Source: an uncultured Candidatus Saccharibacteria bacterium
GTDB taxonomy: Bacteria > Patescibacteriota > Minisyncoccia > Phycocordibacterales > UBA2100
DNA: 64,000 nucleotides
Direction: 5' to 3'
NCBI GenBank assembly: GCA_964350885.1
Contig: CAYGKV010000006.1
Span: 18 to 64,017 of the forward strand
This document shows, piece by piece, positions 11,068 to 50,452 of this stretch. The notes below the pieces were generated by a model that was not told where the DNA came from, searched no databases, and worked only from the letters and a program-made list of their open reading frames with translations. The position numbers and the translations under genes were made by a program. Positions within the stretch are counted from its first letter, which is position 1, and every line of letters starts with the position of its first letter.

Positions 11068-13209
11068 ATGGCTCGCGACTATCCTTTAGAGAAGGTTCGC
11101 AACTTCGGTATTGTCGCGCACGTGGACGCGGGGAAGACCACCACGTCGGAACGAATCCTTTATTACACCGGCGAGTCGCACAAAATTGGCGAAGTGCATG
11201 AAGGCAATACCGTTACCGACTGGATGGAACAGGAGCGCGAACGCGGCATCACCATCACTGCGGCCGCGATTACGTGTTTTTGGAACCCGAGCTACATGGG
11301 TGCAGACCTCTCACAGAAAGTGCGTTTCAATATTATCGATACTCCCGGCCACATCGACTTCACCTCCGAAGTGAAGCGATCCATGCGCGTGCTAGACGGT
11401 GCTGTCGTCGTGTTCGATGGCGTCGCTGGCGTGGAGCCACAGTCAGAAACCAACTGGCGCTACGCGGAAGAGGCAAATGTGCCGCGCATCTGCTACATCA
11501 ACAAGCTCGATCGCACCGGTGCCTCGTTTGAAAAGTCATACGCTTCCATCCTTGATCGTCTTTCCAACAAAGCCGTTCGTTTCCAAATTCCCATCGGCCT
11601 CGAGGATAAATTCGAAGGGATTATCAACTTGCTCTCGATGAAGGCCTACAAATTTGAGGGGGAGATGGGGAAGAACGTCATTGCATATGACATCCCAGAG
11701 CACATGATGGCGGAGGCGAAGAAATATCACGATGAGCTCATCGAGCGCATCGTGGAAAACGACGATGCCGTGATGTCTGATTTTCTCGAAGGCAAAGAAA
11801 TTCCGCTCGACGTTCTCCAAAAAACGCTTCGCAAAGGCGTAATCGCCAACAAAATTTTCCCGGTACTTACTGGTTCCTCGCTCAAGAATAAGGGAGTGCA
11901 ATTGGTGCTGGATGCAGTCGTTGATTATCTGCCGTGTCCAAAAGACATGCCCGAATCAAAGGGAATCAATACCGACACCGGTGAACCTGACACACGTCCG
12001 GCGTCGGACGAGGCTCCGTTTGCCGCGCTCGTCTTTAAAATTCAAACCGATCCTTTCGTCGGTCAACTTTCTTTCTTCCGCGTGTACTCTGGAAGCTTTA
12101 CCGCAGGGGAGACGGTGTATGATTCTGCCAACAACAAGAAAGAGCGCGTCGGTCGCATCGTCCGACTGCAGGCCGATAAACGCGAAGACGTAAAGACGGT
12201 CTACGCGGGTGAGATTGCCGCTGCAGTGGGTATGAAAGAGGTGAAGATAGGCCACACGCTCTGCGATGCAGATCACCCGATAGCCCTCGAATCCATCGTG
12301 TTTCCGGAGCCGGTCGTCTCTATGCGTGTCGAGCCCAATACAAAAGGCGACCAGGAGAGAATGGGCATGGCGCTCTCCAAACTCTCCGATGAGGACCCAA
12401 CGTTCCGCGTCAAATCTGATCCAGAAACAGGCGAAACTATCATTTCAGGCATGGGAGAATTGCACCTCGAGATCATCGTCGATCGTATGAAGCGCGAATT
12501 CAATGTGCAAGCATCGACCGGCAAGCCCCAAGTCGCATACCGCGAGACGATCCAAGGGAACGCAGACGTGGAATACAAACACATCAAGCAGACGGGTGGC
12601 CGGGGTCAGTACGGTCATGTGAAAATTCGCATCAAACCGCTTGAGCCACTCGACCCTGAGAAGAAGGTGAAAAACAACGTCGATCGAGAAGATCATTTCG
12701 AATTCACCAACAACATCAAGGGGGGTGTCATCCCGCAAGAGTTCATTCAGCCCGTGAAGAAGGGCCTCAAAGAGGCGATGGATCGCGGTGTCCTCGCCGG
12801 ATTCCCAGTCGTAGATATCTCGGTGGAATTGTACGACGGTTCCGCACACGACGTAGACTCTTCTGAAATCGCGTTCAAATTGGCGGCGATTAATGCTATG
12901 CAGGAGGCGATGCAGAAAGCGAGGCCTGTCATCCTCGAGCCGATCATGAAATTGGAAGTCGTCGTCCCCGAGAAATTCATGGGCGATGTGACTGGCATGA
13001 TCAACAGTAAGCGCGGAGCGATCGAAGCCATGGGTGAGCGTGGTCAGGCGCGCGTGATTACGGCGAAGGTCCCACTCTCCGAGCTTTTCGGATTCACCAC
13101 ACAGCTCCGCTCTCTCACCGAGGGCCGCGGAGTTCCGAACCTAGAATTCTCTCACTACGCGATTGTGCCAAAGACCGCCGCCGATTCCGTCATCGCCGCG
13201 AGAAAATAA
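11068..13209 (+). CDS. fusA: elongation factor G
   Basis: 713 aa; G domain AHVDAGKTT, DTPGHIDF, NKLD; full EF-G architecture. Confidence 0.95.
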   Translation: MARDYPLEKVRNFGIVAHVDAGKTTTSERILYYTGESHKIGEVHEGNTVTDWMEQERERGITITAAAITCFWNPSYMGADLSQKVRFNIIDTPGHIDFTSEVKRSMRVLDGAVVVFDGVAGVEPQSETNWRYAEEANVPRICYINKLDRTGASFEKSYASILDRLSNKAVRFQIPIGLEDKFEGIINLLSMKAYKFEGEMGKNVIAYDIPEHMMAEAKKYHDELIERIVENDDAVMSDFLEGKEIPLDVLQKTLRKGVIANKIFPVLTGSSLKNKGVQLVLDAVVDYLPCPKDMPESKGINTDTGEPDTRPASDEAPFAALVFKIQTDPFVGQLSFFRVYSGSFTAGETVYDSANNKKERVGRIVRLQADKREDVKTVYAGEIAAAVGMKEVKIGHTLCDADHPIALESIVFPEPVVSMRVEPNTKGDQERMGMALSKLSDEDPTFRVKSDPETGETIISGMGELHLEIIVDRMKREFNVQASTGKPQVAYRETIQGNADVEYKHIKQTGGRGQYGHVKIRIKPLEPLDPEKKVKNNVDREDHFEFTNNIKGGVIPQEFIQPVKKGLKEAMDRGVLAGFPVVDISVELYDGSAHDVDSSEIAFKLAAINAMQEAMQKARPVILEPIMKLEVVVPEKFMGDVTGMINSKRGAIEAMGERGQARVITAKVPLSELFGFTTQLRSLTEGRGVPNLEFSHYAIVPKTAADSVIAARK

Positions 13210-13210
13210 T

Positions 13211-13567
13211 TTACGCGAGGCTTGCGCCTCTGGGGTTTCCTTCTTCAAGCTGTGCTTCAGAGAGATACTCGGCTAATCGTAGCTTTGCGATGCTAATTGT
13301 TAGAGCAACCTCAGCAAGTTTCTCTTCAGTTAGCGGTTGGAAGAGGATTGCTTTGATGTATCCTCGGACGTACGATTGAAATTCCGAGAGTTGTTCGTGG
13401 TCGGCTTTCCCCATTACTTTTTGCAGTTCACCTTCACCAGCAAGAGCCGTCCGGATTCCCTTGAGGACATGTTCGAGGCCCTCCTTTATTGCCGATTTCT
13501 TCTGCAGCTCCGCTATGTCCGCAAAAGAAACGGTGCGGCCGCTCTCGCCACGATTCGTTTCTTTCAT
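13211..13567 (-). CDS. hypothetical helical protein (118 aa)
   Basis: Clean ORF convergent with fusA, with stop codons 2 nt apart; no known motifs. Confidence 0.4.
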   Translation of the reverse strand: MKETNRGESGRTVSFADIAELQKKSAIKEGLEHVLKGIRTALAGEGELQKVMGKADHEQLSEFQSYVRGYIKAILFQPLTEEKLAEVALTISIAKLRLAEYLSEAQLEEGNPRGASLA

Positions 13568-13632
13568 GAGAAAATTTTAGCACACTCAGAGAAATACGTC
13601 CCTTTCGGTGTCTCAACAACCAACAAATTAAT

Positions 13633-14050
13633 AATTTTGTGCACAACTTCCTTGCACCCACTCTCTGTGATGTACAATGAACCCCATGCTCGCACGCATT
13701 CCTCGCACTCTCCTCCAGCTCTTCTTTCTGGGTGTTGTGGTATCACTCGCGCTTAGTCTCGATTACGTCTACGCAACACACGGCGGCTGGCACGGCCCCA
13801 CCGCAGCACCACCGGGCAACAACGTCGCCGCTCCCCTCAACGTCGGGAACGCTCTCCAGGGAAAGGGTGGCGGCCTCACCATTGGGAGTACTCTCGATGT
13901 TGTAGCCAGCACAACCATGAGCGGCGGACTCGGCTTCAGGACTCGTGGCTCAGCCCTCACAAACCCCGCCTTCACCATAGACATGGGTCCACTCCCTGAA
14001 GGAGCCAATTATGGCATTCGTTTTGCTGACGGGTCGGTGCAGTTGACGGC
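13633..14050 (+). repeat. copy A of a ~418-bp direct repeat: promoter plus the first ~125 codons of a secreted protein
   Basis: Essentially identical to 14583..15001. Contains TTGCAC-N15-TACAAT and the shared N-terminus MNPMLARIPRTLLQLFF...FADGSVQLTA. Confidence 0.9.
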
Positions 14051-14447
14051 GTATGAACCAAGTGTTGCGAAGGGACCAGTTACCATCGATTTTGAATGTT
14101 GGAATTCCGATGATAACGACGGTTGTAAATCGACGGTTTCGTGTCCGGTGGGGATGACTATAAAGTCTTCGAAGTTGGCGATGAACTTGGAATATGGGTT
14201 TGTTGGGAGTGGACAACTTGGCCAAGTTGCACAGAATACAATGACCGTATTAGCACCATCTTCTAATGTTGGCGACGGAGAAGCTGAGGTATGGTTGTCA
14301 ATGAGTGAAGAAGAAAATCCAAGAATTTCGTCAGGTTCAGTTGATATTTCGGGCGTAATTGGTAAGTCGAAGCTCCGCTACTCTTGCAAAGAGAATGATA
14401 GCAATGGTGGAGACTGTCACGCTCTGGGGCAAATGGTGTGCAACTAA
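13677..14447 (+). CDS. secreted protein, variant 1: shared N-terminal module plus a Cys-containing C-terminal domain
   Basis: Signal peptide (LLQLFFLGVVVSLALSLDYVYA); residues 1-125 are identical to the paralog at 14628; unique C-terminus with 6 Cys. Confidence 0.7.
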   Translation: MNPMLARIPRTLLQLFFLGVVVSLALSLDYVYATHGGWHGPTAAPPGNNVAAPLNVGNALQGKGGGLTIGSTLDVVASTTMSGGLGFRTRGSALTNPAFTIDMGPLPEGANYGIRFADGSVQLTAYEPSVAKGPVTIDFECWNSDDNDGCKSTVSCPVGMTIKSSKLAMNLEYGFVGSGQLGQVAQNTMTVLAPSSNVGDGEAEVWLSMSEEENPRISSGSVDISGVIGKSKLRYSCKENDSNGGDCHALGQMVCN

Positions 14448-14582
14448 TTTTTTGTATCAGCTTGAGACAAAAGCTCGGTGACTCTGACTCAGTTTTCAGA
14501 CCCTACTACTATGTGGAGCAATGCACCAGGGAGTGTTTTTCTTTTTTTGGGTCGTTTAGAACCTCAAAGTTCTGGCGTGCGT

Positions 14583-15001
14583 TTTCTTTGTGCATAACCT
14601 CCTTGCACCCACTCTCTGTGATGTACAATGAACCCCATGCTCGCACGCATTCCTCGCACTCTCCTCCAGCTCTTCTTTCTGGGTGTTGTGGTATCACTCG
14701 CGCTTAGTCTCGATTACGTCTACGCAACACACGGCGGCTGGCACGGCCCCACCGCAGCACCACCGGGCAACAACGTCGCCGCTCCCCTCAACGTCGGGAA
14801 CGCTCTCCAGGGAAAGGGTGGCGGCCTCACCATTGGGAGTACTCTCGATGTTGTAGCCAGCACAACCATGAGCGGCGGACTCGGCTTCAGGACTCGTGGC
14901 TCAGCCCTCACAAACCCCGCCTTCACCATAGACATGGGTCCACTCCCTGAAGGAGCCAATTATGGCATTCGTTTTGCTGACGGGTCGGTGCAGTTGACGG
15001 C
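14583..15001 (+). repeat. copy B of the same ~418-bp direct repeat
   Basis: See copy A. The junction with unique sequence has a short tandem (gacggctgc)x2 at 14995-15012. Confidence 0.9.
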
Positions 15002-15491
15002 TGCGACGGCTGCGACGGGCGGACAGGTGCTTTCGTTTGATAAATATTTACATCTTCAACACCGTCCAGGAATTGGTGGTTACGCGGTGCCTCAAGGTTG
15101 GAATGTCCGACCATTTAATATCATCATTACTAACACAATTACGGGTGCGTCACTATCGTCAAATCGCGTAACACTCCCAGTCGGCACATACTACATCCAG
15201 GCAAAGGCGAATGCGTATAGTTCACGCACCTTTCAGTCCGCAATATATAACGTCACCGCAGGGAGTTACATACTGTTTGGCATTATGGGGTTTGCAAATG
15301 GGGGTACCGACGACCAAGGTGGGGGCAACTCTATTGTGAGCGGGGTGTTCACATTAGGCGCGCAGTCGCAACTCGAGGTACGTTTCGGTGCGTATGAAAC
15401 CGGATTGTGTTATCGCGCAGATCTTTTGATACCAGGCGGAAATGAAGCAAACTATGTGTGTACTGACGTAGAGATTTGGAAGTTGGATTAG
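14628..15491 (+). CDS. secreted protein, variant 2: shared N-terminal module plus a tail-fibre/C1q-like beta-rich C-terminal domain
   Basis: Same first ~125 aa, then a unique 160-aa C-terminal domain (GWNVRPFNIIITNT...VEIWKLD). Confidence 0.7.
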   Translation: MNPMLARIPRTLLQLFFLGVVVSLALSLDYVYATHGGWHGPTAAPPGNNVAAPLNVGNALQGKGGGLTIGSTLDVVASTTMSGGLGFRTRGSALTNPAFTIDMGPLPEGANYGIRFADGSVQLTAATAATGGQVLSFDKYLHLQHRPGIGGYAVPQGWNVRPFNIIITNTITGASLSSNRVTLPVGTYYIQAKANAYSSRTFQSAIYNVTAGSYILFGIMGFANGGTDDQGGGNSIVSGVFTLGAQSQLEVRFGAYETGLCYRADLLIPGGNEANYVCTDVEIWKLD

Positions 15492-15537
15492 TCGTGTGTG
15501 ATTTGCGCACTACTCATAAGAGTCTCCGCACAAAAAG

Positions 15538-15846
15538 ATGTATAATGAGCGCATGAACTTCTTTTCATCGACTTGGGCGCGCGTCGGGGGTGCACTCTTG
15601 CTTCTTGGCGCCTTCCTTTTTTGGTTCATCACGATGTACGCACCACCCACAGATGAATCTTTGCCAGTGATATCAATCTCGGCCAGCGACGATTCTTCTC
15701 TTTCTGCACGCGAGGCGATGCTCCAAGCCGTCACGTCTACCAGCACCACTACCCTTGAGGAACGTGAAGCGCTTCTCCGATTAATAGGCACTTCTACCGG
15801 CTCGACTGTGGAAGAACGAGAGGCGATGCTCAGGTCAGTGCAGTAA
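15538..15846 (+). CDS. small membrane protein with triplicated EEREA(M/L)L motif
   Basis: TM helix, then three copies of xxREAMLQAV / EEREALLRLI / EEREAMLRSV; extended -10 (tgtataatg) upstream. Confidence 0.5.
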   Translation: MYNERMNFFSSTWARVGGALLLLGAFLFWFITMYAPPTDESLPVISISASDDSSLSAREAMLQAVTSTSTTTLEEREALLRLIGTSTGSTVEEREAMLRSVQ

Positions 15847-16839
15847 TTGTCTATGGATCACGCGTACCAGACCGCCGCTGCGATTTTGTCGGCGCTCCTC
15901 TTGATTATCGCAGTGGCATTTTTCTCTCTGAATCCCCGTACCGCTTCTGCGGTGCACTCGAATGCCATAACAGGCTACGCATGGAGCGATACTATCGGCT
16001 GGATATCTCTCAACTGTGTAGACGGCGGGACGAACGGATCGGATATTTGCGGCACGTTCCCCTACGGTCTCATTGTGGACCCAGCAAATGGAAACATCTC
16101 AGGATACGCATGGAGCGACAACATCGGCTGGGTTTCTGCAAACGTAGCTACTGGATGTCCTTCGGGCACGTGCACTGCTCGAATCAATGGCAGTACAATA
16201 TCGGGGTGGCTAAAGGCGCTTGCCGGTGGTTCGGCGCAAAGCGGGGGATGGGACGGATGGATTAGCCTTTCCGGTAGTGGTATCGACTCGACAGGGCTTC
16301 CTTTTTCCTACGGCATCACCAAAAAAACCGACGGCACGTTTACCGGCTATGCATGGGGGAGCGCAGTCGTCGGGTGGGTTGATTTCAAAACACATGTTGT
16401 GCAAACGCACTATTCCGTATGCACCCCCTCAACTGTTTACACCTGTGTCGGTGTTGGCACAGTTCGTACTACCGTCACCGACCCCTATTGCGTGGTAACG
16501 ACAAGCGACGAGGTGTGCGATCCGCCCAAATATTGCTCCCCTGGTGTCTCTACTTGTCTCGAATCTCCCCCCACAATTACAAGGCACCTTGAGGCAATTC
16601 CGCAGCTAGTCAAAAAAGGCGGAACCACAAAGTTGTACTGGGACGTCAGCAACGTGAAGAGATGCACTGTGTCGGGTAACGGACAGACGTGGAACCTCAA
16701 GTCTTCGGGTACGGCCGGCCGGACCACCACCGCCATCAACCAACGTACCGTCTATACGATGACCTGCACCCAGATGAACAATACGACCTTCACCGAAACC
16801 GCAACCATTAGCGTCTCGCCGGTGTTTCAGGAAAGATGA
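15847..16839 (+). CDS. secreted/membrane-anchored GYAWS-IGWIS repeat protein with Cys-rich and Ig-like C-terminal domain
   Basis: N-terminal TM/signal; four repeats (ITGYAWSDTIGWISLNC, ISGYAWSDNIGWVSANV, GGWDGWISLSG, FTGYAWGSAVVGWVDF); paralog of 31588..32841. Confidence 0.7.
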   Translation: MSMDHAYQTAAAILSALLLIIAVAFFSLNPRTASAVHSNAITGYAWSDTIGWISLNCVDGGTNGSDICGTFPYGLIVDPANGNISGYAWSDNIGWVSANVATGCPSGTCTARINGSTISGWLKALAGGSAQSGGWDGWISLSGSGIDSTGLPFSYGITKKTDGTFTGYAWGSAVVGWVDFKTHVVQTHYSVCTPSTVYTCVGVGTVRTTVTDPYCVVTTSDEVCDPPKYCSPGVSTCLESPPTITRHLEAIPQLVKKGGTTKLYWDVSNVKRCTVSGNGQTWNLKSSGTAGRTTTAINQRTVYTMTCTQMNNTTFTETATISVSPVFQER

Positions 16840-16898
16840 TATTGGATTTTTAGACGATGTAGAAGGATATGACACAATTTCTCTGGTATCATTAGAAG

Positions 16899-19532
16899 TT
16901 GCCAATCGCGAACATGACAAAGATAATCACTTCAAGCAGTCTCGGTTTGCTTCTCATGCTCACTCCCTTTGTTTCTTTTGCCGATATCTTAAGCGATCTC
17001 CAAGCTCAAATACAGATGCTTCTCGCCCAGGTCGCGATTCTTGAGCGACAGGTGCAATTGCAAACCCCCGTACTACCGCTGGTTGTTTCTACGCCCCCTT
17101 CGGGTGGAAGTTGCCTCCTACTCTCACGCCCTCTTTCGCAAGGGATGAGCGGCTCTGACGTTACTGCCCTGCAGATATTTTTGTCCCAAGACAGGGTTGT
17201 GTATCCGGAGGCATCTGTCACGGGTTTTTTCGGGCCTCTCACCGAGCGTGCCTTGCAGCGATGGCAAAGCGCGCGCGGCATCGTCTCTTCTGGTAGTCCC
17301 GCCACTACCGGATGGGGGGTCGCTGGGCCACGGACACGCTCGATGATACAGCTCGTCTCGTGTTCAAGTGTGCCGACTCCGCCTGTCACGAATATTCCAC
17401 CGTATGTACCGCCTTCGATTCCTTGTACGATGGGCGGCATCACGGTACCCGCGGGGAGTTTGGTGCCGTTCTACGCGCACTCATCAATTGCAAACGGTCT
17501 GCGCTGCGAACAGTTTATGCAAATGCGGCAGTGCGTAAATGGCGTACTGACTGGCAACAACGAGTATCAATATCCTTCGTGTTCAGTGCGCACGCCGCTT
17601 TCCTGTAATGCAGGCGGCACGACAGTTCAGAACGGAACATCCCAGCTGTTCTACTCGCAGGCCTCGGTCGCATTTGGCGGGTCGTGCAGTGCGGTATCGC
17701 AAATGCGCACCTGTGCCGATGGCGTGCTCTCGGGCTCTTCTCAATACACCTCTGCGTCCTGCTCGGTCGCAGCGGCACAAGCGTGTAGGGTGGATGGTGT
17801 CGAGTTGGCGCACAACACATCCCGCGCGTTCTATTCCAGAGCGTTGGTTGGCTTCGGAGAGAACTGCTTGCCCCATGTGCAGACGCGCGCGTGTACCAAC
17901 GGCACGCTCTCAGGGAGCAGTGATTTCAATAAGACATCCTGCACGAGTGCGACGAGTACCTCGTGCTCGTTGGGTGGTGCCAGTGTCGCCAATACTGCTT
18001 CGAGGCTGTTTTATTCGGTCGAATCTGTCGCCTTCGGGAGCACCTGTACTCCGCATAGCTTGTCCCGCACCTGTACAAACGGCATTTTGAGCGGCACTTC
18101 GACGCATCCATTCCCCACGTGCACTGTCGCGGCGGCTTCATCGTGTGTACTTGATGGAGCCGTTGTCGCGCACAATGCGTCGAGAACCTTCTACACGAGT
18201 GACACGGTTCCATTCGGACAGTCGTGCAGCGCGACTACCGTGGCCAAATCACGTACGTGCACGAATGGGGTATTGGGTGGAGACACTGCGGCCAACAAGG
18301 CATCATGCTCTGTCGGATCGCAGCCAGCCCCCACGTGTTCCATGAGCGTTAACAATCCGATTATTAGGCCGAATCCTCCGACGAACGGTTCGGTGACTGC
18401 GACGTGGGCAAGCCAGAACGCAACGACAGGCAGTTTGTCGTGGGTATCTGGCCAGAATATTTCTGTTGCACCAGCAAGTGGTTCGCGGACGGTCACCTAC
18501 GATTCGATAGGGCAAAAGACGATCACACTTTCTCTCACGGGCCCTGGCGGTTCGGGGCAGTGTAGTACACAAGTGACGGTACAAAATGATTTGCCGCCGA
18601 CCTGCAATCTGAGAGTGACCCGTATCGGGGCGACGACAGCGAGCACGACCGCTGTCACCAATCTCACATACGGTACGTCGATCACGCTTTCCTGGAATAG
18701 CACACGAGCGACCGACTATGCGTCGTCCACTTCCGCGACGACGACTGCGCAAGTCTCATCCGGCTCATCCACTTTTGTGCCCACCGCTTCTGGAGCGATC
18801 ACCTATACATTCAACGGACCTGGCGGACAGTGTCAGAAGAGCGTGACGGTCGGGTATGTCGCACCGACATGCTCAGTAACAGCCGTACCCTCGACGGTAA
18901 TCTATGGAGATTCCGTGACACTCAATTGGACGAGTGCAAACGCCGATTACCTCACCGCGACATCCTCCGATCGCATCGCGATTGCAGGCTCTGTCGTCTT
19001 TCCGAATCAAACATCAACGACCGACTACGTATTCCAGGCATTTGGGAGGGGAGGACAGCGTCAGTGTACGACGCGCGTGACGGTTCCGCAGCGAATTGCT
19101 GTGGATGCCCCAGCCGGGGGTGTCGTCGTCCAGACCGGGAACCAGCTTGCAATCGCTCTGCGTAGCGTCGGCACGCTCCCCACATCTCCGGGCGCCTACC
19201 TAGAGCTCCGCAAATCCGACAACACAAATCTTGGAATTATTGCCACTCGGGTCAATCCAAACGGAAGTCTAGGATGGACCGTGCCAACGACCGTGGGCAA
19301 CAACACGATCACGAGCGGCAGCTACTTCATTCGAGCTACACTCTATCATCCTATGAGTGCATGCTCGGGCACCACGTGTACCGGCTCGGCGATTGTAGAC
19401 GGTAGAGCGGATAGCAGCATCTTCACGATCTCAACAACAACAGTCGCCGCGGGGACGTCTCGGAATCTCGCGAATGCATTGGCCGCACTTGAATCCGCAC
19501 TTAAAGCACTTATCGATCAGTTGAAGCAATAA
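16899..19532 (+). CDS. large secreted surface protein: signal peptide, coiled coil, peptidoglycan-binding-like domain, ~6 Cys-containing ~55-aa repeats, Ig-like repeats, conserved C-terminal helix
   Basis: 877 aa; LSQGMSGSDVTALQIFLS...GFFGPLTERALQRWQ resembles PG_binding_1; repeated C..GG..V.NG.S..FY....V.FG.SC......RTC.NG.LSG......SC modules; C-terminus RNLANALAALESALKALIDQLKQ. Confidence 0.75.
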   Translation: MPIANMTKIITSSSLGLLLMLTPFVSFADILSDLQAQIQMLLAQVAILERQVQLQTPVLPLVVSTPPSGGSCLLLSRPLSQGMSGSDVTALQIFLSQDRVVYPEASVTGFFGPLTERALQRWQSARGIVSSGSPATTGWGVAGPRTRSMIQLVSCSSVPTPPVTNIPPYVPPSIPCTMGGITVPAGSLVPFYAHSSIANGLRCEQFMQMRQCVNGVLTGNNEYQYPSCSVRTPLSCNAGGTTVQNGTSQLFYSQASVAFGGSCSAVSQMRTCADGVLSGSSQYTSASCSVAAAQACRVDGVELAHNTSRAFYSRALVGFGENCLPHVQTRACTNGTLSGSSDFNKTSCTSATSTSCSLGGASVANTASRLFYSVESVAFGSTCTPHSLSRTCTNGILSGTSTHPFPTCTVAAASSCVLDGAVVAHNASRTFYTSDTVPFGQSCSATTVAKSRTCTNGVLGGDTAANKASCSVGSQPAPTCSMSVNNPIIRPNPPTNGSVTATWASQNATTGSLSWVSGQNISVAPASGSRTVTYDSIGQKTITLSLTGPGGSGQCSTQVTVQNDLPPTCNLRVTRIGATTASTTAVTNLTYGTSITLSWNSTRATDYASSTSATTTAQVSSGSSTFVPTASGAITYTFNGPGGQCQKSVTVGYVAPTCSVTAVPSTVIYGDSVTLNWTSANADYLTATSSDRIAIAGSVVFPNQTSTTDYVFQAFGRGGQRQCTTRVTVPQRIAVDAPAGGVVVQTGNQLAIALRSVGTLPTSPGAYLELRKSDNTNLGIIATRVNPNGSLGWTVPTTVGNNTITSGSYFIRATLYHPMSACSGTTCTGSAIVDGRADSSIFTISTTTVAAGTSRNLANALAALESALKALIDQLKQ

Positions 19533-19576
19533 ACTGAACTGGCCTACACGCGCTTGACGTCTTGTGTTCTTGGAGA

Positions 19577-19598
19577 TAAGGTTGATGTATATTAATCA
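19577..19598. promoter_or_regulatory. perfect 9-bp inverted repeat (ATGTATATT-N4-AATATACAT), candidate TA operator
   Basis: Lies directly upstream of the Phd/YefM-RelE operon start (ATG 19605) in an AT-rich promoter region. Confidence 0.5.
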
Positions 19599-19604
19599 AT
19601 ATAC

Positions 19605-19847
19605 ATGCATATGACGAAGACAATTCCCATTTCCAAAGCGCGCGTTAATCTCGGGGCTGTCGTGCGGGGTGTACGTGAGAAGGGTGACGTGATAGTGCTA
19701 GAAAAAGACGGTATACCGGTTGCCTCTATCGTTGGCGTTGACGCTATAGAAGATCTTCGCGACGCATTAGATCTGGCAACAGCGCGCATGAAGACGCAAA
19801 AAGACGCGCTCGTAGACTGGGCAGACGTGCGCGCGAAGTATGTATAA
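19605..19847 (+). CDS. type II antitoxin, Phd/YefM family
   Basis: 80 aa, ISKARVNLGAVVRGVREKGDVIVLEKDGIPVASIV; overlaps the toxin start by 8 nt. Confidence 0.7.
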   Translation: MHMTKTIPISKARVNLGAVVRGVREKGDVIVLEKDGIPVASIVGVDAIEDLRDALDLATARMKTQKDALVDWADVRAKYV

Positions 19848-20088
19848 AGTGCTTCTCAAGACTTCTGCCAAGAAAGAACTCGATTCACTTCCAGCGAGCG
19901 TACAGAAAAGAATTTCTGCTGCCATCGACGAATTGAGACGCATGGGTATTCATGCGAAACATACTATAAAACCTCAAGCCCCGATCGGCGGGTATCGTAA
20001 GCGAGTGGGCGAGTATCGGATTCTCTTCGATCGAGATGCAGAAATCATTCTTGTTCATCAGATTTCGAAACGCTCTGAGGCATACTAA
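19840..20088 (+). CDS. type II toxin, RelE/ParE family
   Basis: 82 aa; KKELDSLPASVQKRISAAIDEL...YRKRVGEYRILFDRDAEIILVHQISKRSEAY is a classic RelE/ParE-like core. Confidence 0.7.
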   Translation: MYKVLLKTSAKKELDSLPASVQKRISAAIDELRRMGIHAKHTIKPQAPIGGYRKRVGEYRILFDRDAEIILVHQISKRSEAY

Positions 20089-20160
20089 ATCCTGAATGAT
20101 GAGCATGGATAACGTTATCCACACGACGTCATATCTAAAAAGGGGGGGTGTGGCATTGTA

Positions 20161-23100
20161 ATGACATTACTTGTAAAACTTTTTTCTTACGTCACGAAAA
20201 ATCGCGTTTGGAAGCGTCGGATTACTCCTCCTCATCCTGCCTTTCACCGTCTCGGCACAATCGCTCACCGATCTCCAAGCCCAAATCCAAGCGCTTCTAG
20301 CTCAGATTGCTGCACTCCAGAATCAACAAACACCAATTACTGATCCACCAACCGACGACTATCCCGGCGATACCCCTTCCTCCTCCTGCCCTCAGCTCTC
20401 CTCCACCCTTCAGAGAGGCGCTCGTGACGCTTCAACAGGTGGACAGGTTTCCGAGCTCCAGATATGGCTTTCCAGCTACTACAACCTCAACGAAGAAGAT
20501 GTCGTCACCGGCTACTTCGGAAGAACGACTGAGCGCTACGTAAAGAAATTCCAGACAGAGCAAGGCCTCCCCTCCTTCGGTATCGTGGACTCCCTTACGC
20601 GCGCCAAAATTGCGCAGGTGTGTGGGGGAAATGTTCCGATCCCTCCATCGTCAGCGAGTCTCTCTGCCTCGCCAATATCCGGTCCTGCACCGCTCACAGT
20701 ATATTTTCAGGGAAGCGGTTCGGCACTGGACCAGGGTGCGTTCATTAATTTCGGTGATGGAACGAATAGTGGTAACGGAATAGTAAACGTGAATCACGCA
20801 TACAACTATCCCGGCACGTATACCGCAACCTTGCATAAAAACGGGGCCAAAGGTGAAATTGTCGCCAGAGCGACCATAACGGTTACCGGAGGCACCGTGG
20901 GAGGCATCACCGTCACAGCCCCCAACGGCGGAAAAAGTTACTGCGTGGGGGACACAATAGATATAAAGTGGGCGCATCCAAGCAACATGAGTTCGGTGAC
21001 GCTACAGTTGTTTACTCCGGGAGTCGGGTTGAATGGCGGAACTATCGGAAGTTACTCAACCCAAGGAACAGGAGTCGGCGGCATACAGTGGCAGTTGAAA
21101 CAGGCCGGGCGATACACTGTCGCGCCGGGACCCCATAAGATCAGCGTACACGGAAATAGCGGTGGCGTTGGGATGTCTGATGAAAGTGATGCGTGGTTTA
21201 CCGTTAAACAATGCGATCAGCCAGGATCGCCCATTTCTGTCACCGCCCCCAACGGGGGTGAGCAGTGGGAGATTGGGCAGCTCAACACAATCACGTGGAA
21301 TCCCTATAACCCGACTGGCACTAACGCATCGAATCAAGTCATCGTTTATCTTGAAAAGTGTGCAGTTGACGGAGGATGTGAGACGGTTGGACGTGTCATA
21401 GAAGCTGGCAAGGCCTCGCTCCATACGTATTTCAACATCAACGATTACCAAACATTTGCGAAGCCAGGCATCTATTATGTACGCGCGGTCAACAACGTAA
21501 CGGGCGCTTGGGATCGAAGTGACAAACCGTTTACACTACTTCCTCGGAGAGCTGATCTGAAGGTAAATGGATCCGACGGCCCAATTACCTTGACTGACAA
21601 CCAAAAAATCACTGTCACATGGTCTGTAAGCGACGCAGATAAGTGTAGCTTGCACAGCGTTCGAGAGTCCTATGGGGCCAATGATGCTGCAATTCATGAT
21701 CTCCCCCCTACTGGAAATCGCGAACTGTACGCATATGTCAATTCGTACAGCTCCAATTTTATCTGGCTGAATTGCTCAAAAGGAGGTTCCGCTTATGCAG
21801 CTGAAGATAAAGTATATGTGAATATTGGCAATGCTCCGGCGAGTCTTCAGGTTAAAAGTCCTAATGGTGGTGAACAGCTTGATCCCAAAAAAGAAATGAT
21901 GATCACATACCTTCCGTCAGGCCTGAAGTCAGTTTCGGTCGCATTATACAAAAATGACCAGTGGAAAACGTGGATTCAGAAAGATGCTGTAATGCTACCC
22001 GATTTTAATTCCCCAGTAGGACCTACGCTGGTTCCGTCCGAATGGATTCAGGGACTAGGGGAAGGCGATAACGCTGGTGCGATTTGGAAGGTCTATGTTA
22101 CCGGGCAAAAAGTCGATGGTAGCGGATACGTCGACGACAAGAGCGACGCGGCGTTTAGTTTTGTCACTTCGCCAACAGTCTCGCGCGGGGTGCACGTCGT
22201 CGGTGTCTACGAGGGCACCTACCCCTCTGGAGTGTTTCATTCCTCCAACAACCATCCGGAAGGAACGGTTAATGTTGCGATTACCGGATTTGCGACCCCT
22301 CCTTCGGTTCTCGTGCTTTCGTCCTACGAACCAATGCACTGGGTCATTAACAATCCGTCCGGGGCCGCCTTTGAGAAAGTCGTCACACTCGGCTATCACG
22401 ATCAACGCGTCAGCGGGCTTCCTACGGGCACTGTGGTAGAGAGTCACACGGTAGCGAAAGACGGAAACTACGCATGGAGCTGCGCGTATGCAAATTACGA
22501 GACGGACGGCGGATGTAGCTATAACAGTCTGAAAAACTGGCTGAGCGCTCGCGGGATGCCGGTCACTACATTTACCGGTAGCTACGCTGGTAAAGCCTTT
22601 ACAGTCTCACTCGGTGGTGCAACGAGTACACCAACAATCTTCGCGGCAAAGAACTCTAGTTTCGGAAATCAGACTCACTTAGCGGGGACGAACAACGCAA
22701 AAATCGGCTCGTTCACACTTTCGGGAACTGGGATCACGCTTCAGAGAATCGTAATAGAACACTCCGCAGAAGCAGTGGCGGCGTTCAGGAGCCTTAAGTT
22801 AGTGGATGCCGTAACGGGAGCACAGATTGGTAATGTTATTGCTACTCCATCGGGAGCCAACACCTTCGCGTTCGGAACCACTACATTACTTTCCGGAACA
22901 AAGACATTCGATGTCTACGCAAACATAATCTCAAGCGCCACGCCTAGAACGCACATTGTGAGCGTTGATGCATCTACAGGAGGTATCATCACGTCAACAG
23001 GTGCGTCAGTGAATATCGGTGCGGATGTAGGACTCCAGACAATTAACGTTCTTGGAAGCGGAGGCGGCACGCTTACAGTCACTCGTGACGTAGGAACGCC

Positions 23101-24928
23101 CATCAACTCAAATGTGATAGCGGGTGCTACGGGTGTACTCGTCGGCAGGTTTGATTTTATGGCACAGAACTCTGCGTACACCGTGCAGGAGCTAAAAGTA
23201 AAAATTCCATCGGATGCGTCAACCTCCGTCTCCAGTGTGACGTTGAAGTACAAAAACTCTGCTGGTGTTGTACAAACAATATCGCAAGCTCTTGCGCTCC
23301 CTTCGGGTACGCAGACGCACGCAATCGCCACATTCACGGGCCTCTCGATGTACGTACCACTCAATGACTCGCGTGACATTGATGTCTACGTAGATGTCCC
23401 AACGATGTCGAATGGTACAAAATCAGGCGCCGCCATTTCCGTAGGTCTCGATGCGGACGAAGGATTCAAGGCATATGACTCTGCGGGCGCTATCGATACC
23501 TCGCTTGCCGCTTCAGACCTCTTCTCCAACTCGTCTCCCGGCTATGGCACCATGTATGTTCGCAAGACCAAGCCGGTCCTTGCAATAGTGGCTCTCGATT
23601 CGACAACGCTAGTCGTCGGATCCAATCAGGTACTTGGTCGCTTCTCGGTCGCAGCTGATGCAGCAGGCATGGTTGATTGGGGGTCGGTGATCTTCACTGT
23701 CGACAAAACTGCGGCTATCACACTCGATTCATTTACAATGTGGAGCGGCTCGAATCAAATCGCGGGTAGTTTCATCGGCGCTGCTTCGTGTCTGAACCAG
23801 ACGACATGCTTCTTGCATTTCCGTCCTACGACTGTCGAGACGATTTCGGCCGGGGTCTCGAAAACATACGAACTCCGTGGGACTGTCGGAAGTATTACTA
23901 TGGGCGGTAACAGCGTTACTGTATCCATCGCAAACCCACAATTATCTGCATCGGCAACGACTAACTTTGCGGCGGTCGCCGGTACGCAAGGCGTGAGCAC
24001 AGCGCCGTCCTTCGTATGGTCTGACTGGTCTGATATTTCCGACCACTCTTCCAACCCAACAGGAGCCTCCACCTCTGACTGGATGGGCGAATATCTTGTA
24101 AAGACACTTCCATTGATTATCGGTAATAAGTTCGTCGCCTTCGACACACTCTCTCCTCTCCCGGGAACACAATCCTGCACCTTCAACGGTCAAACAGTTG
24201 CTCACGGCGCATCGGTGATTGCCCACCAGAGCGCCACGGTACCCTTTGGCCAAACATGCGTCTCACAATCTCGCGCATGCACCAACGGAGTATTGAGTGG
24301 GACGTATACCAACAGTTCGTGCTCCGTCACTCCTGCCCTTGCTCCTACGGGAACAAACGTGTCCCTCGGCACATGGGTAGGCGTGGGTGCCCAAGTCACT
24401 CAGTCCGGCACTACAGCAACGCTGACTGAAAGCACCACCAACGCTCAGCACTTCATCCACAGCTACATCACGGTGCCAGCTGCTTCCACGTGGAAGTTTT
24501 CGTTTGACGCACGTGCAACGGCAGCAGACAGGATAGTGCGTATGCTGGTTATGAATACCGACAACCCGTCTGGTAACCACATAGCGATGCAGTGCACACT
24601 CACTGGCGTAGGCGGTGTCAAAAATAAATGGGGTACTGCGTCAGCGTCAGGTATCGAGGCTTCAGGGACCCAGACCGGTGACGGCTGGTACACTTGCGCA
24701 CTCTCGGGGACACTGAGCTCTGCCTCGATTAGCAAATTAAGACTCGTGATTTTAAGTGAAAACGGAGCTTTGAAGACCTACCAAGGAGACGGTGAGAGCA
24801 AAATCGAATTAAGAAACCTGAAGCTAGAATCATTCTCCTCATCCAGCGCCTCGGCAGAGAGGAATCTTGCATCCGCGCTTGCCGGTCTGGAATCAGCGCT
24901 CCAGTCTCTATTGCAGTTGTTGCGATAG
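20161..24928 (+). CDS. giant (~1,580 aa) secreted surface protein with a frameshift in a T6 tract near the 5' end
   Basis: ATG at 20161 is in frame 1. The frame-2 ORF opens at 20177 and encodes ...RKIAFGSVGLLLLILPFTVSAQSLTDLQAQIQALLAQIAAL, then a PG-binding-like segment, beta-rich repeats and a Cys module, ending RNLASALAGLESALQSLLQLLR. Removing one T from T6 (20180-20185) fuses M-T-L-L-V-K-L-F to this signal peptide. Confidence 0.7.
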
Positions 24929-24968
24929 ATTTTTTTCGTAGGGCTTGAAAAGGTCGGTCTCTCTCTTG

Positions 24969-24997
24969 ACGCAAATGAGAGGTTTGCTATTATCCCT
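24969..24997 (+). promoter_or_regulatory. sigma70-type promoter (TTGACG-17-TATTAT) for tuf
   Basis: cttgacgcaaatgagaggtttgctattatccc; about 180-nt leader containing the palindrome GATCCTGCAGGATC. Confidence 0.5.
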
Positions 24998-25177
24998 TTA
25001 CGCACAAGGCGGTCTTCTTTTTGCCCCTAATCGGTGGCAGAACCTCACAAAGGCGTTGGTATTAAAATTAGTAGTTTATTAAATCAAAGAAAGAGCGCCG
25101 CGAGGTCGCCTCATAAGGACAAAAGGCGACACGATCCTGCAGGATCGGACCTACGCGACATGATTTCGCAAAATCAT

Positions 25178-26377
25178 ATGGCAGAAGAATTTAATCGAAG
25201 CAAGCCACACGTAAACGTCGGCACCATCGGCCACGTCGACCACGGCAAGACCACGCTCACCGCAGCTATTTTGAACGTCCTCTCAAAGGCGGGCAACGGA
25301 TACACCGCGACAGTGAAGGGAGTCGATGATATCGACAAGGCACCGGAAGAGAAGGCGCGCGGTATTACCATCTCGCTCTCGCACTCCGAGTACGAGACGC
25401 CGGCTCGTCACTACGCGCACGTCGATGCTCCTGGCCACGCCGACTACATCAAAAACATGATCACCGGCGCCGCTCAGATGGACGGCGCAATTCTCGTGGT
25501 TGCGGCATCCGACGGTGTTATGCCTCAGACTCGCGAGCACATTCTCCTTGCGAAACAGGTGGGCGTGCCAAAGGTCATCGTATTCTTGAACAAGATTGAT
25601 CAAGTAGATGACAAGGACCTCATCGACCTCGTCGAAGAGGAGGTCCGCGAGCTTCTCGAGAAGCAGGGCTTTGACGGTAAGAACACTCCGGTCATCCGCG
25701 GTTCTGGCCTTAAGGCGCTTGAATCTCCAGAGCCAGGCAATGAGTGGAGCGCGAAGGTCATGGAGCTTGTGAAAGCGCTCGATGAATACATCCCACAGCC
25801 CGTTCGCGAACTCGACAAGCCATTCCTCATGCCAATCGAAGACGTGTTCTCGATCGAAGGTCGAGGTACTGTCGTTACGGGCCGCATTGAGCGCGGTGTT
25901 GTAAAAGTCGGCGAGGAAATCGAAATCGTCGGTATCAAGGACACTGCGAAGACCACAGTTACCGGTGTCGAAATGTTCAACAAATCACTCCAGCAAGGTC
26001 AGGCAGGCGACAACGCGGGCGTGCTTCTCCGCGGCACAAAGAAAGAAGATGTGCACCGCGGACAAGTGCTCTGCAAGCCAGCCTCAGTGAAGCCGCACAC
26101 CGAATTCGAATCCGAAGTCTACATTTTGACCAAGGAAGAGGGCGGTCGTCACACACCGTTCTTCACTGGCTACAAACCACAATTCTACGTTCGCACCACA
26201 GACGTTACCGGAGAGGTAACGCTCAAGGAGGGAGTGGAGATGGTTATGCCAGGCGACACCGTCACCTTCAAAGTGAAATTGGTTGCTCCAATCGCACTCG
26301 AAGATCAAATGCGTTTTGCTATCCGCGAGGGCGGTAAGACCGTGGGAGCAGGTGTTGTTACAAAAGTGGTTGCTTAA
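25178..26377 (+). CDS. tuf: elongation factor Tu
   Basis: [31 protein letters not shown]...; the ORF opens at 25034 but the conserved start is at 25178. Confidence 0.95.
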
Positions 26378-26448: not shown

Positions 26449-28587
26449 CTACGCTCCACACTTGCCGAGGAGTGAGAGGAAGAGCGAGCAGGTCTTTTGC
26501 GGCACGGGAGCTGCTGGTTGTTCTGGGGCGAAGAGGGACTTCAGCACGCCCCATATATTTTTGACGACGCGCGCCACTATCGTTTCGCCGCTCACTGTTC
26601 CAGAAGCGTTTGGAGTTTCTTGTGCGGCAAGGTGCACCGGCGTCGTTGGGCGGTTTGAAATCGTTGCGCTCTCCGTGCCGTATATGTACACGGGGATCGA
26701 GCCCTCGATGATTCGGTTGGTCTGCGCAATCGTGGGCGGGGGAGTGGTGAGACTCGGCGCTGTATCTTTCTTCACCACAGCGTCCAGTTCCTCGATCTGT
26801 GCGCGCCTGATCGGGAGTTGATCTTGGAGCGAGTCTATTGAGAGCATGCACTGTTCATCACAAAGGCCAGCGTTGATTGCTTCTCGGAGGGCATCGATGT
26901 GTGCCTGGATCGCGTCGTAGGTTGCCTTGGCTTTGGCAAGCTCGATTTTGTTGTCGCGCGCCGTATTTGGTTGCTGCGTCCAGTAGACGCTGTCGTGTTC
27001 GAGGATCGATCCAGTACCCGGAGTCTCATCATCTTTCGCGATGACGCCGAGTTTACTCAACGTTTCTTCGAGCCAATCGGGGGTGGAGGTACCGACCGCA
27101 TTATATACATCAAGAATATCTGCAAGCCGCGTCGACGTTGCTGTTTGCATAGTAATTTTGATGCGTTCCCCTGTGTCTGTTGTAGTTGTGGTGGCGGCGT
27201 TGTTTGCAGGAGCGGGAGAGGGGGTAGTGGGCGCAAGCAAATCACGCAACTGCGTCGGCTTCTGAGACGGAGATGTGTCGATCGAAGCGCTTACCGGCTT
27301 CACTCCGCCTTTTGGAGGAAGCGAGGTTACTGTGCTGGTAGTGGTAATGATGTTGCCGTGCGGATCGGTGCTAATGATTATTATGTTGGTTACCGGAGTT
27401 GGAGGAGTGGCCGAAGAGCCTTGGGAAGGCGTGGTGGTCCCATACGATACGAGCGGTCGCGTCGGCTCGAAGGTCTGGGGCGTTCGAGGTGCCGAGACAG
27501 TGGGCCTGGTGTCTTGCTCGGATCCGCGGGATGCGAATGGTTGGAAAAGGTTCGTTATAAAATTGAACGGTGTTGCGACGAGGTTAAATAAGAGTGATGC
27601 AGTAGCAGCAATCAGCTTGGCTCCGGTCGCGGCGACAGAGGTGGTTTTGGGCTTCAGGTTTCCGTACTCATCGTATGAATTTCCTGAAGATGAAGTGTCT
27701 GTGGGAGGGGTCGGTTGCCCAAACGTTGTGTTCGTATCTTGGGGAAGCGGAGCACCCGCGTCGTTCGGAAGTGGAAGGGGAGTCCCTACTACCGGAGACA
27801 CTGGATTGGCAATAGGCGCAACGGGCGCTGATGGGTCTAGAGTAGTCCATTGACCTTGTTGTTCCACGGGCGCTCCCTCAGGGACAGCCCAGTCTGCGGG
27901 ATTTTGGATTTGAGATCCTGTCGCTGAAGTGGCAGGAGCTTCTGGAATTTGGGGCTCCGTAAGTTGTGTAATCGGCTGTACGGTACCATCTTGTGGTGTG
28001 ATGACAGTGTTAGGCTCTTGAGGAGATGGCAATGGATCTTGCGCGGACGTTTCGCCAAGTTCGGGATTAATAGGAGAAGGGCTCGCATCTGGAGGCGGTG
28101 GAGAGTCTGGTTGTGTAAACGTACAATCAGCTTCATTCAAACAAGCAACCTGGATTTCTGGTTGTTGCGCACACGGAGCCCACTTGTCTTCAATGAGACA
28201 CGTAGTGTTTTCCATCTTCCCATCGCAATAATTCTCCTTTGAGCAAAATGCTTTAATAAGAGGGCCCTCACAAGGTTTGCCGTAAAGATTAAAATATATT
28301 TTATCGTTCTCCGAAAATGTTTGGTTTCGAGGCTTGTCGCTTCTGTAGACCTCGGTCCCATTTTGAGGTTTCGGGCATTTCTTGTTCGCTATGTCTGCGA
28401 GGGACTCACTTATCTTTGGGGTTGTTCCAAGGATGGGAGAGCCCCCGCTCGCGGCTGGATCAGGTTCGCTACCCGCTGCAGCTGTTTGCGATGACCGCGC
28501 TGCTTTTGTGTATGACTGGAAATCTAGATACAGAGCGCCGCAAAATACAGCCGCGAGTACCATAGCACCAATCCACCTGCCTTCCAT
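26449..28587 (-). CDS. large secreted Pro/Thr/Ser-rich protein with a coiled-coil and Cys-rich N-terminal region
   Basis: Start taken at MEGRWIGAMVLAAVFCGALYL (TM/signal); long low-complexity P/T/S-rich linker; conserved coiled-coil domain towards the C-terminus. Confidence 0.6.
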   Translation of the reverse strand: MEGRWIGAMVLAAVFCGALYLDFQSYTKAARSSQTAAAGSEPDPAASGGSPILGTTPKISESLADIANKKCPKPQNGTEVYRSDKPRNQTFSENDKIYFNLYGKPCEGPLIKAFCSKENYCDGKMENTTCLIEDKWAPCAQQPEIQVACLNEADCTFTQPDSPPPPDASPSPINPELGETSAQDPLPSPQEPNTVITPQDGTVQPITQLTEPQIPEAPATSATGSQIQNPADWAVPEGAPVEQQGQWTTLDPSAPVAPIANPVSPVVGTPLPLPNDAGAPLPQDTNTTFGQPTPPTDTSSSGNSYDEYGNLKPKTTSVAATGAKLIAATASLLFNLVATPFNFITNLFQPFASRGSEQDTRPTVSAPRTPQTFEPTRPLVSYGTTTPSQGSSATPPTPVTNIIIISTDPHGNIITTTSTVTSLPPKGGVKPVSASIDTSPSQKPTQLRDLLAPTTPSPAPANNAATTTTTDTGERIKITMQTATSTRLADILDVYNAVGTSTPDWLEETLSKLGVIAKDDETPGTGSILEHDSVYWTQQPNTARDNKIELAKAKATYDAIQAHIDALREAINAGLCDEQCMLSIDSLQDQLPIRRAQIEELDAVVKKDTAPSLTTPPPTIAQTNRIIEGSIPVYIYGTESATISNRPTTPVHLAAQETPNASGTVSGETIVARVVKNIWGVLKSLFAPEQPAAPVPQKTCSLFLSLLGKCGA

Positions 28588-28745
28588 GGGGACATGATAA
28601 CAGTCTTCTTGCTGGTTCCCACCGGAACTGTGCATTGATGTCTGTGCCGTTCTTCGCGCACACACACTTGACGAAAATCATTATCGTGAGACAATTTCGG
28701 GAGGATATAGCCTCGCATGAGGCCGGGCTAGACAAGGAGAACCCA

Positions 28746-50380: not shown

Positions 50381-50452
50381 GCACTCGACATCGAGGGGGG
50401 GGGTGTTACCATTCTCTTATTATTCGCCCCATTTTCATTTATAGTAGTTACC

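Follow-up and report, generated by a model that had tools for sequence, protein, structure and literature searches.

How do ultra-small bacteria display proteins on their surface? Members of the candidate phyla radiation (CPR), or Patescibacteria, are thought to live attached to other cells, and to our knowledge almost nothing is known of their surface proteins or of how these are held there. The question is raised by three genes, here called g1, g2 and g3, on a 64,000-nucleotide (nt) stretch of contig CAYGKV010000006.1, the whole of which is referred to below as the window. In a preliminary description of this DNA, g1 and g2 were seen as a family of giant surface proteins whose conserved N- and C-terminal ends enclose a variable interior, and these ends were taken for a dedicated export, anchoring or assembly signal. 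We find that all three proteins end in the same type of short helix, that this helix recurs on proteins with unrelated interiors and stands strictly at the C-terminus, and that its peptide is kept while its DNA diverges. We consider it plausible, with moderate confidence, that the whole package represents Sec-exported, peptidoglycan (PG)-tethered modular adhesins, and that the terminal helices would act in them as coiled-coil association or docking tags, a mechanism that we infer. The three genes are as follows.

16914..19532, + strand: g1, predicted secreted PG-binding surface protein; the open reading frame (ORF) is listed from TTG 16899, with 877 amino acids (aa) from the TTG and 872 aa from the ATG
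20177..24928, + strand: g2, long open frame of 1583 codons (protein of ~1580 aa), uninterrupted
50453..52132, + strand: g3, 559 aa, with a signal peptide, three beta-sandwich domains, a flexible linker and a C-terminal helix, and with neither coil nor PG-binding domain

For g1, ATG 16914 is the likely start rather than TTG 16899, judging by the typical signal peptide that it gives. With 872 and ~1580 aa, to call g1 and g2 giant was generous.

Recurrence and position of the C-terminal helix

The C-terminal helix (C-helix) is ~22 residues long and has a flexible Ser/Thr/Asn-rich linker ahead of it. In the window it is found at three places.

19461..19529, + strand: g1 C-helix RNLANALAALESALKALIDQLKQ, ending at the stop codon
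24860..24925, + strand: g2 C-helix RNLASALAGLESALQSLLQLLR
52043..52129, + strand: g3 C-helix (model residues 531-558), after a low-confidence linker (residues 513-530)

The last 32 aa of g1 and g2 are 50% identical (BLASTP, E 2e-4), and the helices themselves agree in 14/22 residues, so that they are alike as first described, and "nearly identical" was too strong a word. g3 had been thought to carry the beta-rich interior alone. Its signal peptide, MIKKITLSGIGLLFLLSPLSVSA, is of the family type, a C-helix, ANIAASLVSFESILKEWLSVLLSH, is present too, and only the coil and the PG-binding domain are missing; its C-helix scores 40 bits against a small profile that includes g3 itself. Beyond g1, g2 and g3, no ORF of the window has either this helix or the N-terminal one described below. 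An example of a tryptic peptide for the helix region is NLANALTALESALK.

Does the helix occur elsewhere, and where in the protein does it stand? A hidden Markov model (HMM) of the C-helix matched 39 proteins among the 120 best g1 homologs, and 39/39 matches lay at most 10 residues from the end, with none internal. When 1.84 billion cluster representatives were searched with a 26-position profile, 16 matches were listed at E<=1e-3, which inform on position and not on family size; one of them is a repetitive protein, and in all the other 15 the match reaches the last or second-last residue. One match was obtained when a 42-aa C-terminal profile was run against 5.8 billion proteins in a word-indexed search, the query being too short for that database. 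In 80 loci of named Parcubacteria/Paceibacterota genomes (1.17 Mb, 10,594 ORFs), 13 ORFs have the C-helix and it is terminal in 13/13. In 27 metagenome loci, 29/29 ORFs at E<=1e-3 have it ending 0-7 residues before the stop. Among ~14,400 ORFs altogether, no internal C-helix was found at this threshold. Pooling gives a total of 96 matches, or 83 distinct sequences from many genomes, at a distance of 0-7 residues (10 at most) from the stop. Recurrence beyond the paralogs of the window, on which the earlier proposal had been made to depend beforehand, was thus found.

The taxonomic range of the C-helix is narrow. It was seen only in a Kaiserbacteria-like subset, and a scan of viral contigs gave no confirmed match. 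The C-helix is not modelled in Pfam or NCBIfam, nor is the signal-peptide motif that goes with it, and no description of either was found in the literature. One database protein, P0039, has at residues ~690-720 a shortened C-helix with a signal-peptide end and an N-terminal coil immediately behind it (..SLRQNLANAFLASAQTASEIQARIQ..); two tandem genes of the family are fused in it.

Conservation of the helix

What kind of element is the C-helix? AlphaFold2 models of g3 and of P0050, a compact g1 homolog, have a mean predicted local distance difference test score (pLDDT) of 83.5 and 87.7, respectively, and each has a single terminal helix (residues 531-558 in g3, 477-502 in P0050) behind a low-confidence linker. 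Within the segment modelled as helical, large hydrophobic residues stand at positions 2-6-9-13-16(-20), which corresponds to three heptads. Conservation follows the same register. In the 83 unique C-helices, the information content by heptad position is 3.9 bits at a, 3.8 at e, 3.0 at d, 3.0 at c, 2.9 at g, 2.6 at b and 2.1 at f. Ala5, Leu8, Ala10, Glu12 and Leu15 are near-invariant, giving the signature L-A-x-A-L-x-A-L-E-x-x-L. Conservation of this kind is what helix-helix packing with small flanking Ala residues would predict, and it is less expected for lipid binding or for a protease/transpeptidase recognition site.

The latter two uses have to be weighed all the same. An amphipathic C-helix might be an in-plane membrane anchor, comparable to that of low-molecular-weight penicillin-binding proteins, and the protein would then bridge the membrane with its C-terminus and the peptidoglycan with its N-terminus. 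The helices are amphipathic, with a hydrophobic moment of 0.28-0.42 and a moderate mean hydrophobicity, they are terminal on a flexible linker, and one subtype has an aromatic ending (..LDSWF, ..LGF), all of which would suit such an anchor. However, the net charge is ~0, and aromatics are scarce or absent in the common subtype. Near-invariant small Ala residues with one Glu, together with the heptad conservation, suit protein packing better. Long immunoglobulin-like (Ig-like) stalks would also be expected to point outward, and not to lie between the membrane and the wall. We regard the membrane anchor as quite improbable.

A further possibility is that the shared termini have no function at all, being either a remnant of paralog duplication or the product of gene conversion for cassette swapping, as in antigenic variation. 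The paralogs stand in tandem or in clusters in the variable fusA-tuf island, two tandem genes are fused in the database protein mentioned above, and interiors are shuffled between paralogs, as seen in g2 with its g3-like region and its four-Cys module; these facts are what such a remnant would leave. As DNA, however, the conserved ends are 56-67% identical (37/66 and 40/60 nt, the former being the C-helices of g1 and g2), synonymous codons differ, and the longest exact word shared by g1 and g2 has 12 nt. Recent gene conversion is excluded by these values, and antigenic-variation cassettes were rejected on the same ground, the ends not being near-identical as DNA. The motif is also kept across many genomes whose EF-G proteins are 84-93% identical, and it is never internal. 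Since the peptide is kept at a fixed position while the DNA diverges, the peptide is under purifying selection. The idea of a functionless remnant is largely refuted by these comparisons of sequences and appears very improbable.

The N-terminal frame

The other conserved end of g1 and g2 consists of a signal peptide, a short helix at the mature N-terminus (N-coil) and a PG-binding domain.

16914..16982, + strand: g1 signal peptide MTKIITSSSLGLLLMLTPFVSFA, of the family type by its sequence features
16983..17063, + strand: g1 N-terminal three-heptad helix (DILSDLQAQIQMLLAQVAILERQ), starting at the predicted mature N-terminus
17148..17294, + strand: g1 PG_binding_1 (Pfam, 25.5 bits, cut-off 23)
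20186..20329, + strand: g2 signal-peptide-like segment (LTSRKIAFGSVGLLLLILPFTVSA) and then N-terminal helix (QSLTDLQAQIQALLAQIAALQNQQ)
20438..20611, + strand: g2 PG_binding_1 (Pfam, 45.5 bits, cut-off 23)

That g1 and g2 share all these elements as well as the C-helix, as had been described, is confirmed by BLASTP, in which g1 aa 10-247 and g2 aa 14-238 are 33% identical over 245 aa (E 5.5e-24). The PG-binding-like module is real in both proteins, where PG_binding_1 (PF01471) exceeds the Pfam gathering cut-off; g3 gave no match to it. In the P0050 model, the PG-binding domain superposes on the N-terminal domain of SleB (6tci) with a template modelling score (TM) of 0.85 and a root-mean-square deviation (rmsd) of 2.0 A, and it also aligns with the PG-binding domains of endolysin and DD-peptidase, which have a three-helix fold. 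Anchoring by the N-terminal frame through a bona fide PG_binding_1 is supported by sequence and model, and the domain would be expected to bind peptidoglycan.

The N-coil is modelled as a helix at residues 24-47 of P0050, at the mature N-terminus. Its large hydrophobic residues have the same spacing as those of the C-helix, 2-6-9-13-16(-20), and position 20 is Gln in g2. It directly follows the signal peptide in 49 of the 120 best g1 homologs. In the 80 Parcubacteria/Paceibacterota loci, 66 ORFs have an N-coil, and the labels of these loci include Ryan-, Taylor-, Giovannoni-, Sungii-, Niyogi-, Harrison-, Staskawicz- and Zambryskibacteria in addition to Kaiserbacteria. Most of the N-coil ORFs do not end in a C-helix, and they often stop right after a g3-type domain (..WSDRS..H..DWTNGYLVK..).

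Are the two ends one coupled unit? The 66 N-coil ORFs in these loci compare with 13 C-helix ORFs, and 11 of the 13 have both. Conversely, the C-helix occurs without the coil in g3, P0004, P0120, L102 and L105, and the first four of these have no PG-binding domain either. Among 31 g3 homologs, g3 alone has a canonical C-helix, which means that the helix was appended as a tag to a domain that normally ends the protein. The N-terminal module, found across Parcubacteria, and the C-helix of the Kaiserbacteria-like subset are therefore separable frames. The termini remain, as had been proposed, conserved function-bearing modules around exchangeable interiors, with anchoring attributable to PG_binding_1 and assembly in agreement with the heptad conservation, but the single coupled framing of the preliminary description does not hold.

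The signal peptide and the question of sorting

The signal peptide is the part of the N-terminus that does go with the C-helix. Its family motif is M-x-K-K-I-A-F-x-G-x-G-x-x-L-L-x-S-P-L-x-x-S-A. Signal peptides of the form MLKKIAFAGxGIALLASPLxxSAD gave 29 matches among 14,428 ORFs, and 23/25 of the 3'-complete ORFs bearing one also have the C-helix. In 15 non-redundant family members, the columns of the signal peptide and of the C-helix are more conserved than the globular PG-binding domain.

Such a pattern might mean that the C-helix, perhaps with the family signal peptide, is a true sorting signal for a dedicated enzyme or machinery, which would possibly remove it and then anchor or assemble the proteins, as a CPR counterpart of YSIRK with LPXTG/sortase or of PEP-CTERM/exosortase. 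This is the main rival to an association tag. It would account for the strict C-terminal position on unrelated passenger domains, for the flexible linker ahead of the helix, for the near-invariance of Glu12, for the high conservation of both elements and for their strong co-occurrence. On the other hand, the C-helix has no hydrophobic membrane span, its mean Kyte-Doolittle value of 0.4-1.0 (0.1-1.0 for both helices) being too polar for one, and at a net charge of ~0 it has no basic tail. Its endings vary (..LKQ, ..LLR, ..LSH, ..KLGQ, ..DSWF), and no LPXTG, PEP, GlyGly or similar cleavage motif is present in the 83 aligned C-termini. No NCBIfam or Pfam sorting-signal model matches the g1, g2 and g3 proteins or the C-helix. 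Every feature by which known export or sorting signals are defined is absent from it.

Nor was an accompanying enzyme found nearby. In 36 loci, no recurrent neighbor up to 8 kb from the C-helix genes was a sortase, exosortase, rhombosortase or peptidase, and neither a sortase nor a peptidase is found by Pfam annotation among the large ORFs of the 64-kb window, so that the co-conserved sorting enzyme which the preliminary description proposed to look for did not appear in these stretches. When the neighbors in the 36 loci were clustered, EF-G and EF-Tu (14 loci) were the only widely recurrent ones, with housekeeping genes in fewer loci; further clusters were ComEC, RecJ, SOD, DoxX, an MBL-fold protein and a collagen-repeat protein. 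The conservation at heptad positions, as in helix-helix packing, is a further point against sorting. Taken together, a sorting signal seems rather unlikely, and a processed one is likewise unlikely. A TraG/VirD4-like coupling-protein ATPase (TraG-D_C, TrwB_AAD_bind, DUF8128) is encoded directly upstream of g3, at window 47567..50380. It was considered as a reader of the C-terminal signal and set aside, as g1 and g2 have no such neighbor and all three proteins have Sec-type signal peptides.

Variable interiors

What do the conserved ends enclose? Apart from PG_binding_1, the Pfam matches in g1, g2 and g3 are confined to PKD, in g2, and a weak Kre9_KNH; in g3 Pfam found nothing. The interiors contain the following elements.

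17424..18308, + strand: g1, five tandem four-Cys modules of 53-55 aa, no Pfam family
18324..19085, + strand: g1, three Ig-like repeats of ~85-90 aa with one Cys pair each (35-37% identity, E 1.5e-4 and 0.009)
20654..20887, + strand: g2, PKD domain (PKD_4, 31.2 bits)
22619..24103, + strand: g2, region homologous to the g3 interior, with tandem beta-sandwich domains
24176..24322, + strand: g2, single four-Cys module of the g1 type

The interiors differ between the proteins, as first described, but the ~55-aa modules of g1 hold four Cys and not two. In the homolog P0050, the four-Cys modules (residues 177-476) are modelled with a pLDDT above 90, and they have no match in the PDB at E<=1e-3. The module (~55 aa) is widespread, with 302 database matches that include proteins labelled Bdellovibrio and Moraxellaceae. 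g2 has further beta domains besides PKD, and its aa 820-1314 are 45% identical to g3 aa 20-504 (BLASTP, E 3e-116).

The g3 interior is modelled as three beta-sandwich domains. Its best PDB matches (Foldseek E 3e-11 to 4e-7) are the Ig-like domains of PrgB (E 3e-11), the C-terminal domains of SpaP and BspA, and Bap, and the legs of integrin alpha were matched as well; despite the significant E, TM-scores are low (0.1-0.3) and identity is 7-12%. In terms of the model, the likeness of g3 to adhesin stalks is generic and at the level of the fold. Other carriers of the C-helix have interiors unrelated to each other, namely Gly_rich_2, PKD/CARDB, Beta_helix with an SASA esterase, Ig-like domains, four-Cys modules and g3-like beta-sandwiches.

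Genomic setting

The window contains rpsG, fusA, tuf, the S10/spc ribosomal-protein cluster, secY, adk and map, and is a piece of a CPR genome. Its EF-G is 84-93% identical to EF-G in contigs of metagenome-assembled genomes labelled Kaiserbacteria, and database homologs of g1-, g2- and g3-type genes are labelled Candidatus Kaiserbacteria and Parcubacteria. g1 and g2 lie between fusA and tuf, with a terminator-like element at the end of g2.

11068..13209, + strand: fusA (EF-G), left border of the g1/g2 island
25034..26377, + strand: tuf (EF-Tu), right border of the island
24907..24936, + strand: terminator-like hairpin with a T7 run, overlapping the last codons and the stop of g2

fusA and tuf are normally adjacent in the str operon. 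Here they are separated by the ~11.8-kb island (13210..25033) with g1 and g2. C-helix genes adjoin EF-G and/or EF-Tu in 14 further loci (L012, L016, L024, L027, L029, L093, L094, L099, L100, L102-L104, L106 and L110), which differ in gene content, and variable surface-protein genes seem to have a conserved hot spot in this interval. A sigma-70-like promoter (TTGACG-16-TATTAT with TG), rated good, is located at 24966-24993, directly before tuf. This promoter and the hairpin with its T7 run at the end of g2 suggest that tuf is transcribed separately from the island.

Several other genes accompany the family. A PhdYeFM antitoxin/ParE-RelE toxin pair lies between g1 and g2 (window 19605..20088). 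A small secreted protein with the N-terminal motif W-x-GPTAAPP-x-NV-x-AP-x-NVG is encoded at window 14628..15491; a relative with collagen triple-helix repeats (L111 5128..6285) stands beside another C-helix gene, and the protein may be of another surface-fiber family of the island. Just past tuf, on the - strand (26449..28665), a gene encodes a protein of 738 aa that is rich in Pro, Thr and Ser and has a membrane segment at its N-terminus; Pfam gave no match to this protein, which may be another envelope protein. There is a G7 run upstream of g2 (20142..20148) and a G9 run upstream of g3 (50395..50403), and the + strand of the window has six runs of G>=7 and none of C>=7. No sign of phase variation at the G runs was seen, run lengths being equal in all assemblies seen.

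The start of g2

Is g2 an intact gene? It had been given as 20161..24928, but this interval has 4768 nt, no multiple of 3, and ATG 20161 is out of frame with the long ORF. In the g2 frame, which is open from 20177, the first ATG, GTG or TTG is GTG 20585, which already lies beyond the signal peptide and the coil and past most of the PG-binding domain. At the position of the family start Met, g2 has ACG (20189-91), where T-S-R-K-I-A-F corresponds to M-[LF]-K-K-I-A-F of relatives. The start region is identical in three independent assemblies from other samples, and the missing start is therefore no assembly slip. To join the g2 frame, ATG 20161, with AAGGGGGGG before it, would need a +1 slip on CTT_TTT_T (20179-85). 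g2 may be a fresh pseudogene, or it may use a non-canonical start or depend on recoding.

Proposed mechanism

In the reading that we prefer, g1, g2 and g3 would belong to a lineage-specific, adhesin-like cell-surface family of Kaiserbacteria-like Parcubacteria. The signal peptides point to export by Sec through a signal peptidase I (SPase-I)-type signal peptide. PG_binding_1 would tether the protein non-covalently to the peptidoglycan of the cell itself, and the interior, made of Ig-like/PKD beta-sandwiches and four-Cys modules, or of enzymes or Gly-rich domains in relatives, would project from the wall. The C-helix is most likely a protein-protein association tag in the form of a short coiled coil, which would either bundle copies or dock in trans on a partner helix. 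Possible partners are the N-coils of wall-bound family members, in a dockerin-like or head-to-tail manner. An adhesin role is suggested by the folds, together with the expression data and the attachment proposal for relatives in Paceibacteria (PMC10936435).

Several points weigh against this reading. N-coil and C-helix occur independently, which excludes an obligatory pairing of N- and C-termini. Their profiles are dissimilar (hhalign probability 4%), and the idea that the two are homologous copies was rejected on this value. A coiled coil of three heptads is short and marginally stable. Since g2 has no canonical start, its translation product may lack the signal peptide, or there may be no product at all. 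The co-occurrence of the C-helix with one type of signal peptide (23/25 complete ORFs) would also fit a dedicated export or sorting route.

A bolder version of the association tag is also conceivable. The signal-peptide motif and the C-terminal Ala/Leu/Glu helix would be the two-part address of a new surface-display or self-assembly system in Kaiserbacteria-like CPR, in which C-helix proteins possibly dock on, or polymerize head-to-tail with, the N-coils of peptidoglycan-bound members to form a fibrillar or S-layer-like (surface-layer-like) coat. A coat of this appearance has been seen on ultra-small bacteria. We consider this version speculative and unlikely to be correct.

Comparison with known systems

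The closest known proteins are surface proteins of monoderm bacteria that are bound to the wall non-covalently by a PG_binding_1 module, among them the secreted PGBD/Ig-like/PKD proteins of Paceibacteria, which are highly expressed and for which a role in attachment has been proposed; in cultured Paceibacteria, relatives that share the N-terminal module rank among the secreted proteins with the highest expression (PMC10936435). They share with the present family the Sec signal peptide, the N-terminal PG_binding_1, the Ig-like/PKD interiors, the CPR host and the proposed role in attachment, but that work describes neither the family signal peptide nor the coil at the mature N-terminus nor, above all, the strictly C-terminal helix. 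In Parcubacteria, PG-binding, Ig/PKD-rich secreted proteins are no novelty and bear the annotation "peptidoglycan-binding protein". What appears undescribed is the helix that stands strictly at the C-terminus, along with its link to a conserved signal peptide and its distribution over unrelated passengers.

The general plan is reminiscent of other systems. In proteins with YSIRK-G/S and LPXTG, a signal-peptide motif and a C-terminal element likewise co-occur around a variable adhesin interior, but the g1-g3 family has no YSIRK, LPXTG, hydrophobic span, basic tail or nearby sortase, and its attachment is presumably non-covalent. The g3 interior has its best structural matches in the Gram-positive Ig-fold stalks (PrgB, AgI/II SpaP/BspA, Bap), but those adhesins are anchored by a C-terminal LPXTG. 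A small C-terminal module on unrelated passengers, with wall-anchored members as possible receptors, resembles the dockerin-cohesin pair of the cellulosome type; unlike dockerin, however, the tag is a single ~22-residue helix and not a Ca-binding fold, no cohesin-like partner was found, and docking is a conjecture in our case. Flagellin also has conserved helical termini, which pair in the polymer and enclose a variable middle, whereas the proteins described here have Sec signal peptides, far shorter helices (~20 aa) that are independent of each other, and no match to Flagellin_N or Flagellin_C. S-layer anchoring modules (SLH, CWB2 or comparable) gave no Pfam match in g1, g2 or g3.

The g1-g3 family is therefore a set of candidates for surface proteins of this ultra-small bacterial group. 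The 22-residue C-terminal helix and the signal peptide that co-occurs with it are searchable handles, which mark secreted, wall-binding, adhesin-like proteins. If the C-helix is only an oligomerization helix, the result is a useful, modest annotation of a lineage-specific family. If it is a docking or assembly tag, it would represent a new mechanism of display on a monoderm wall, and the surface proteome of these bacteria could be listed from sequence alone.

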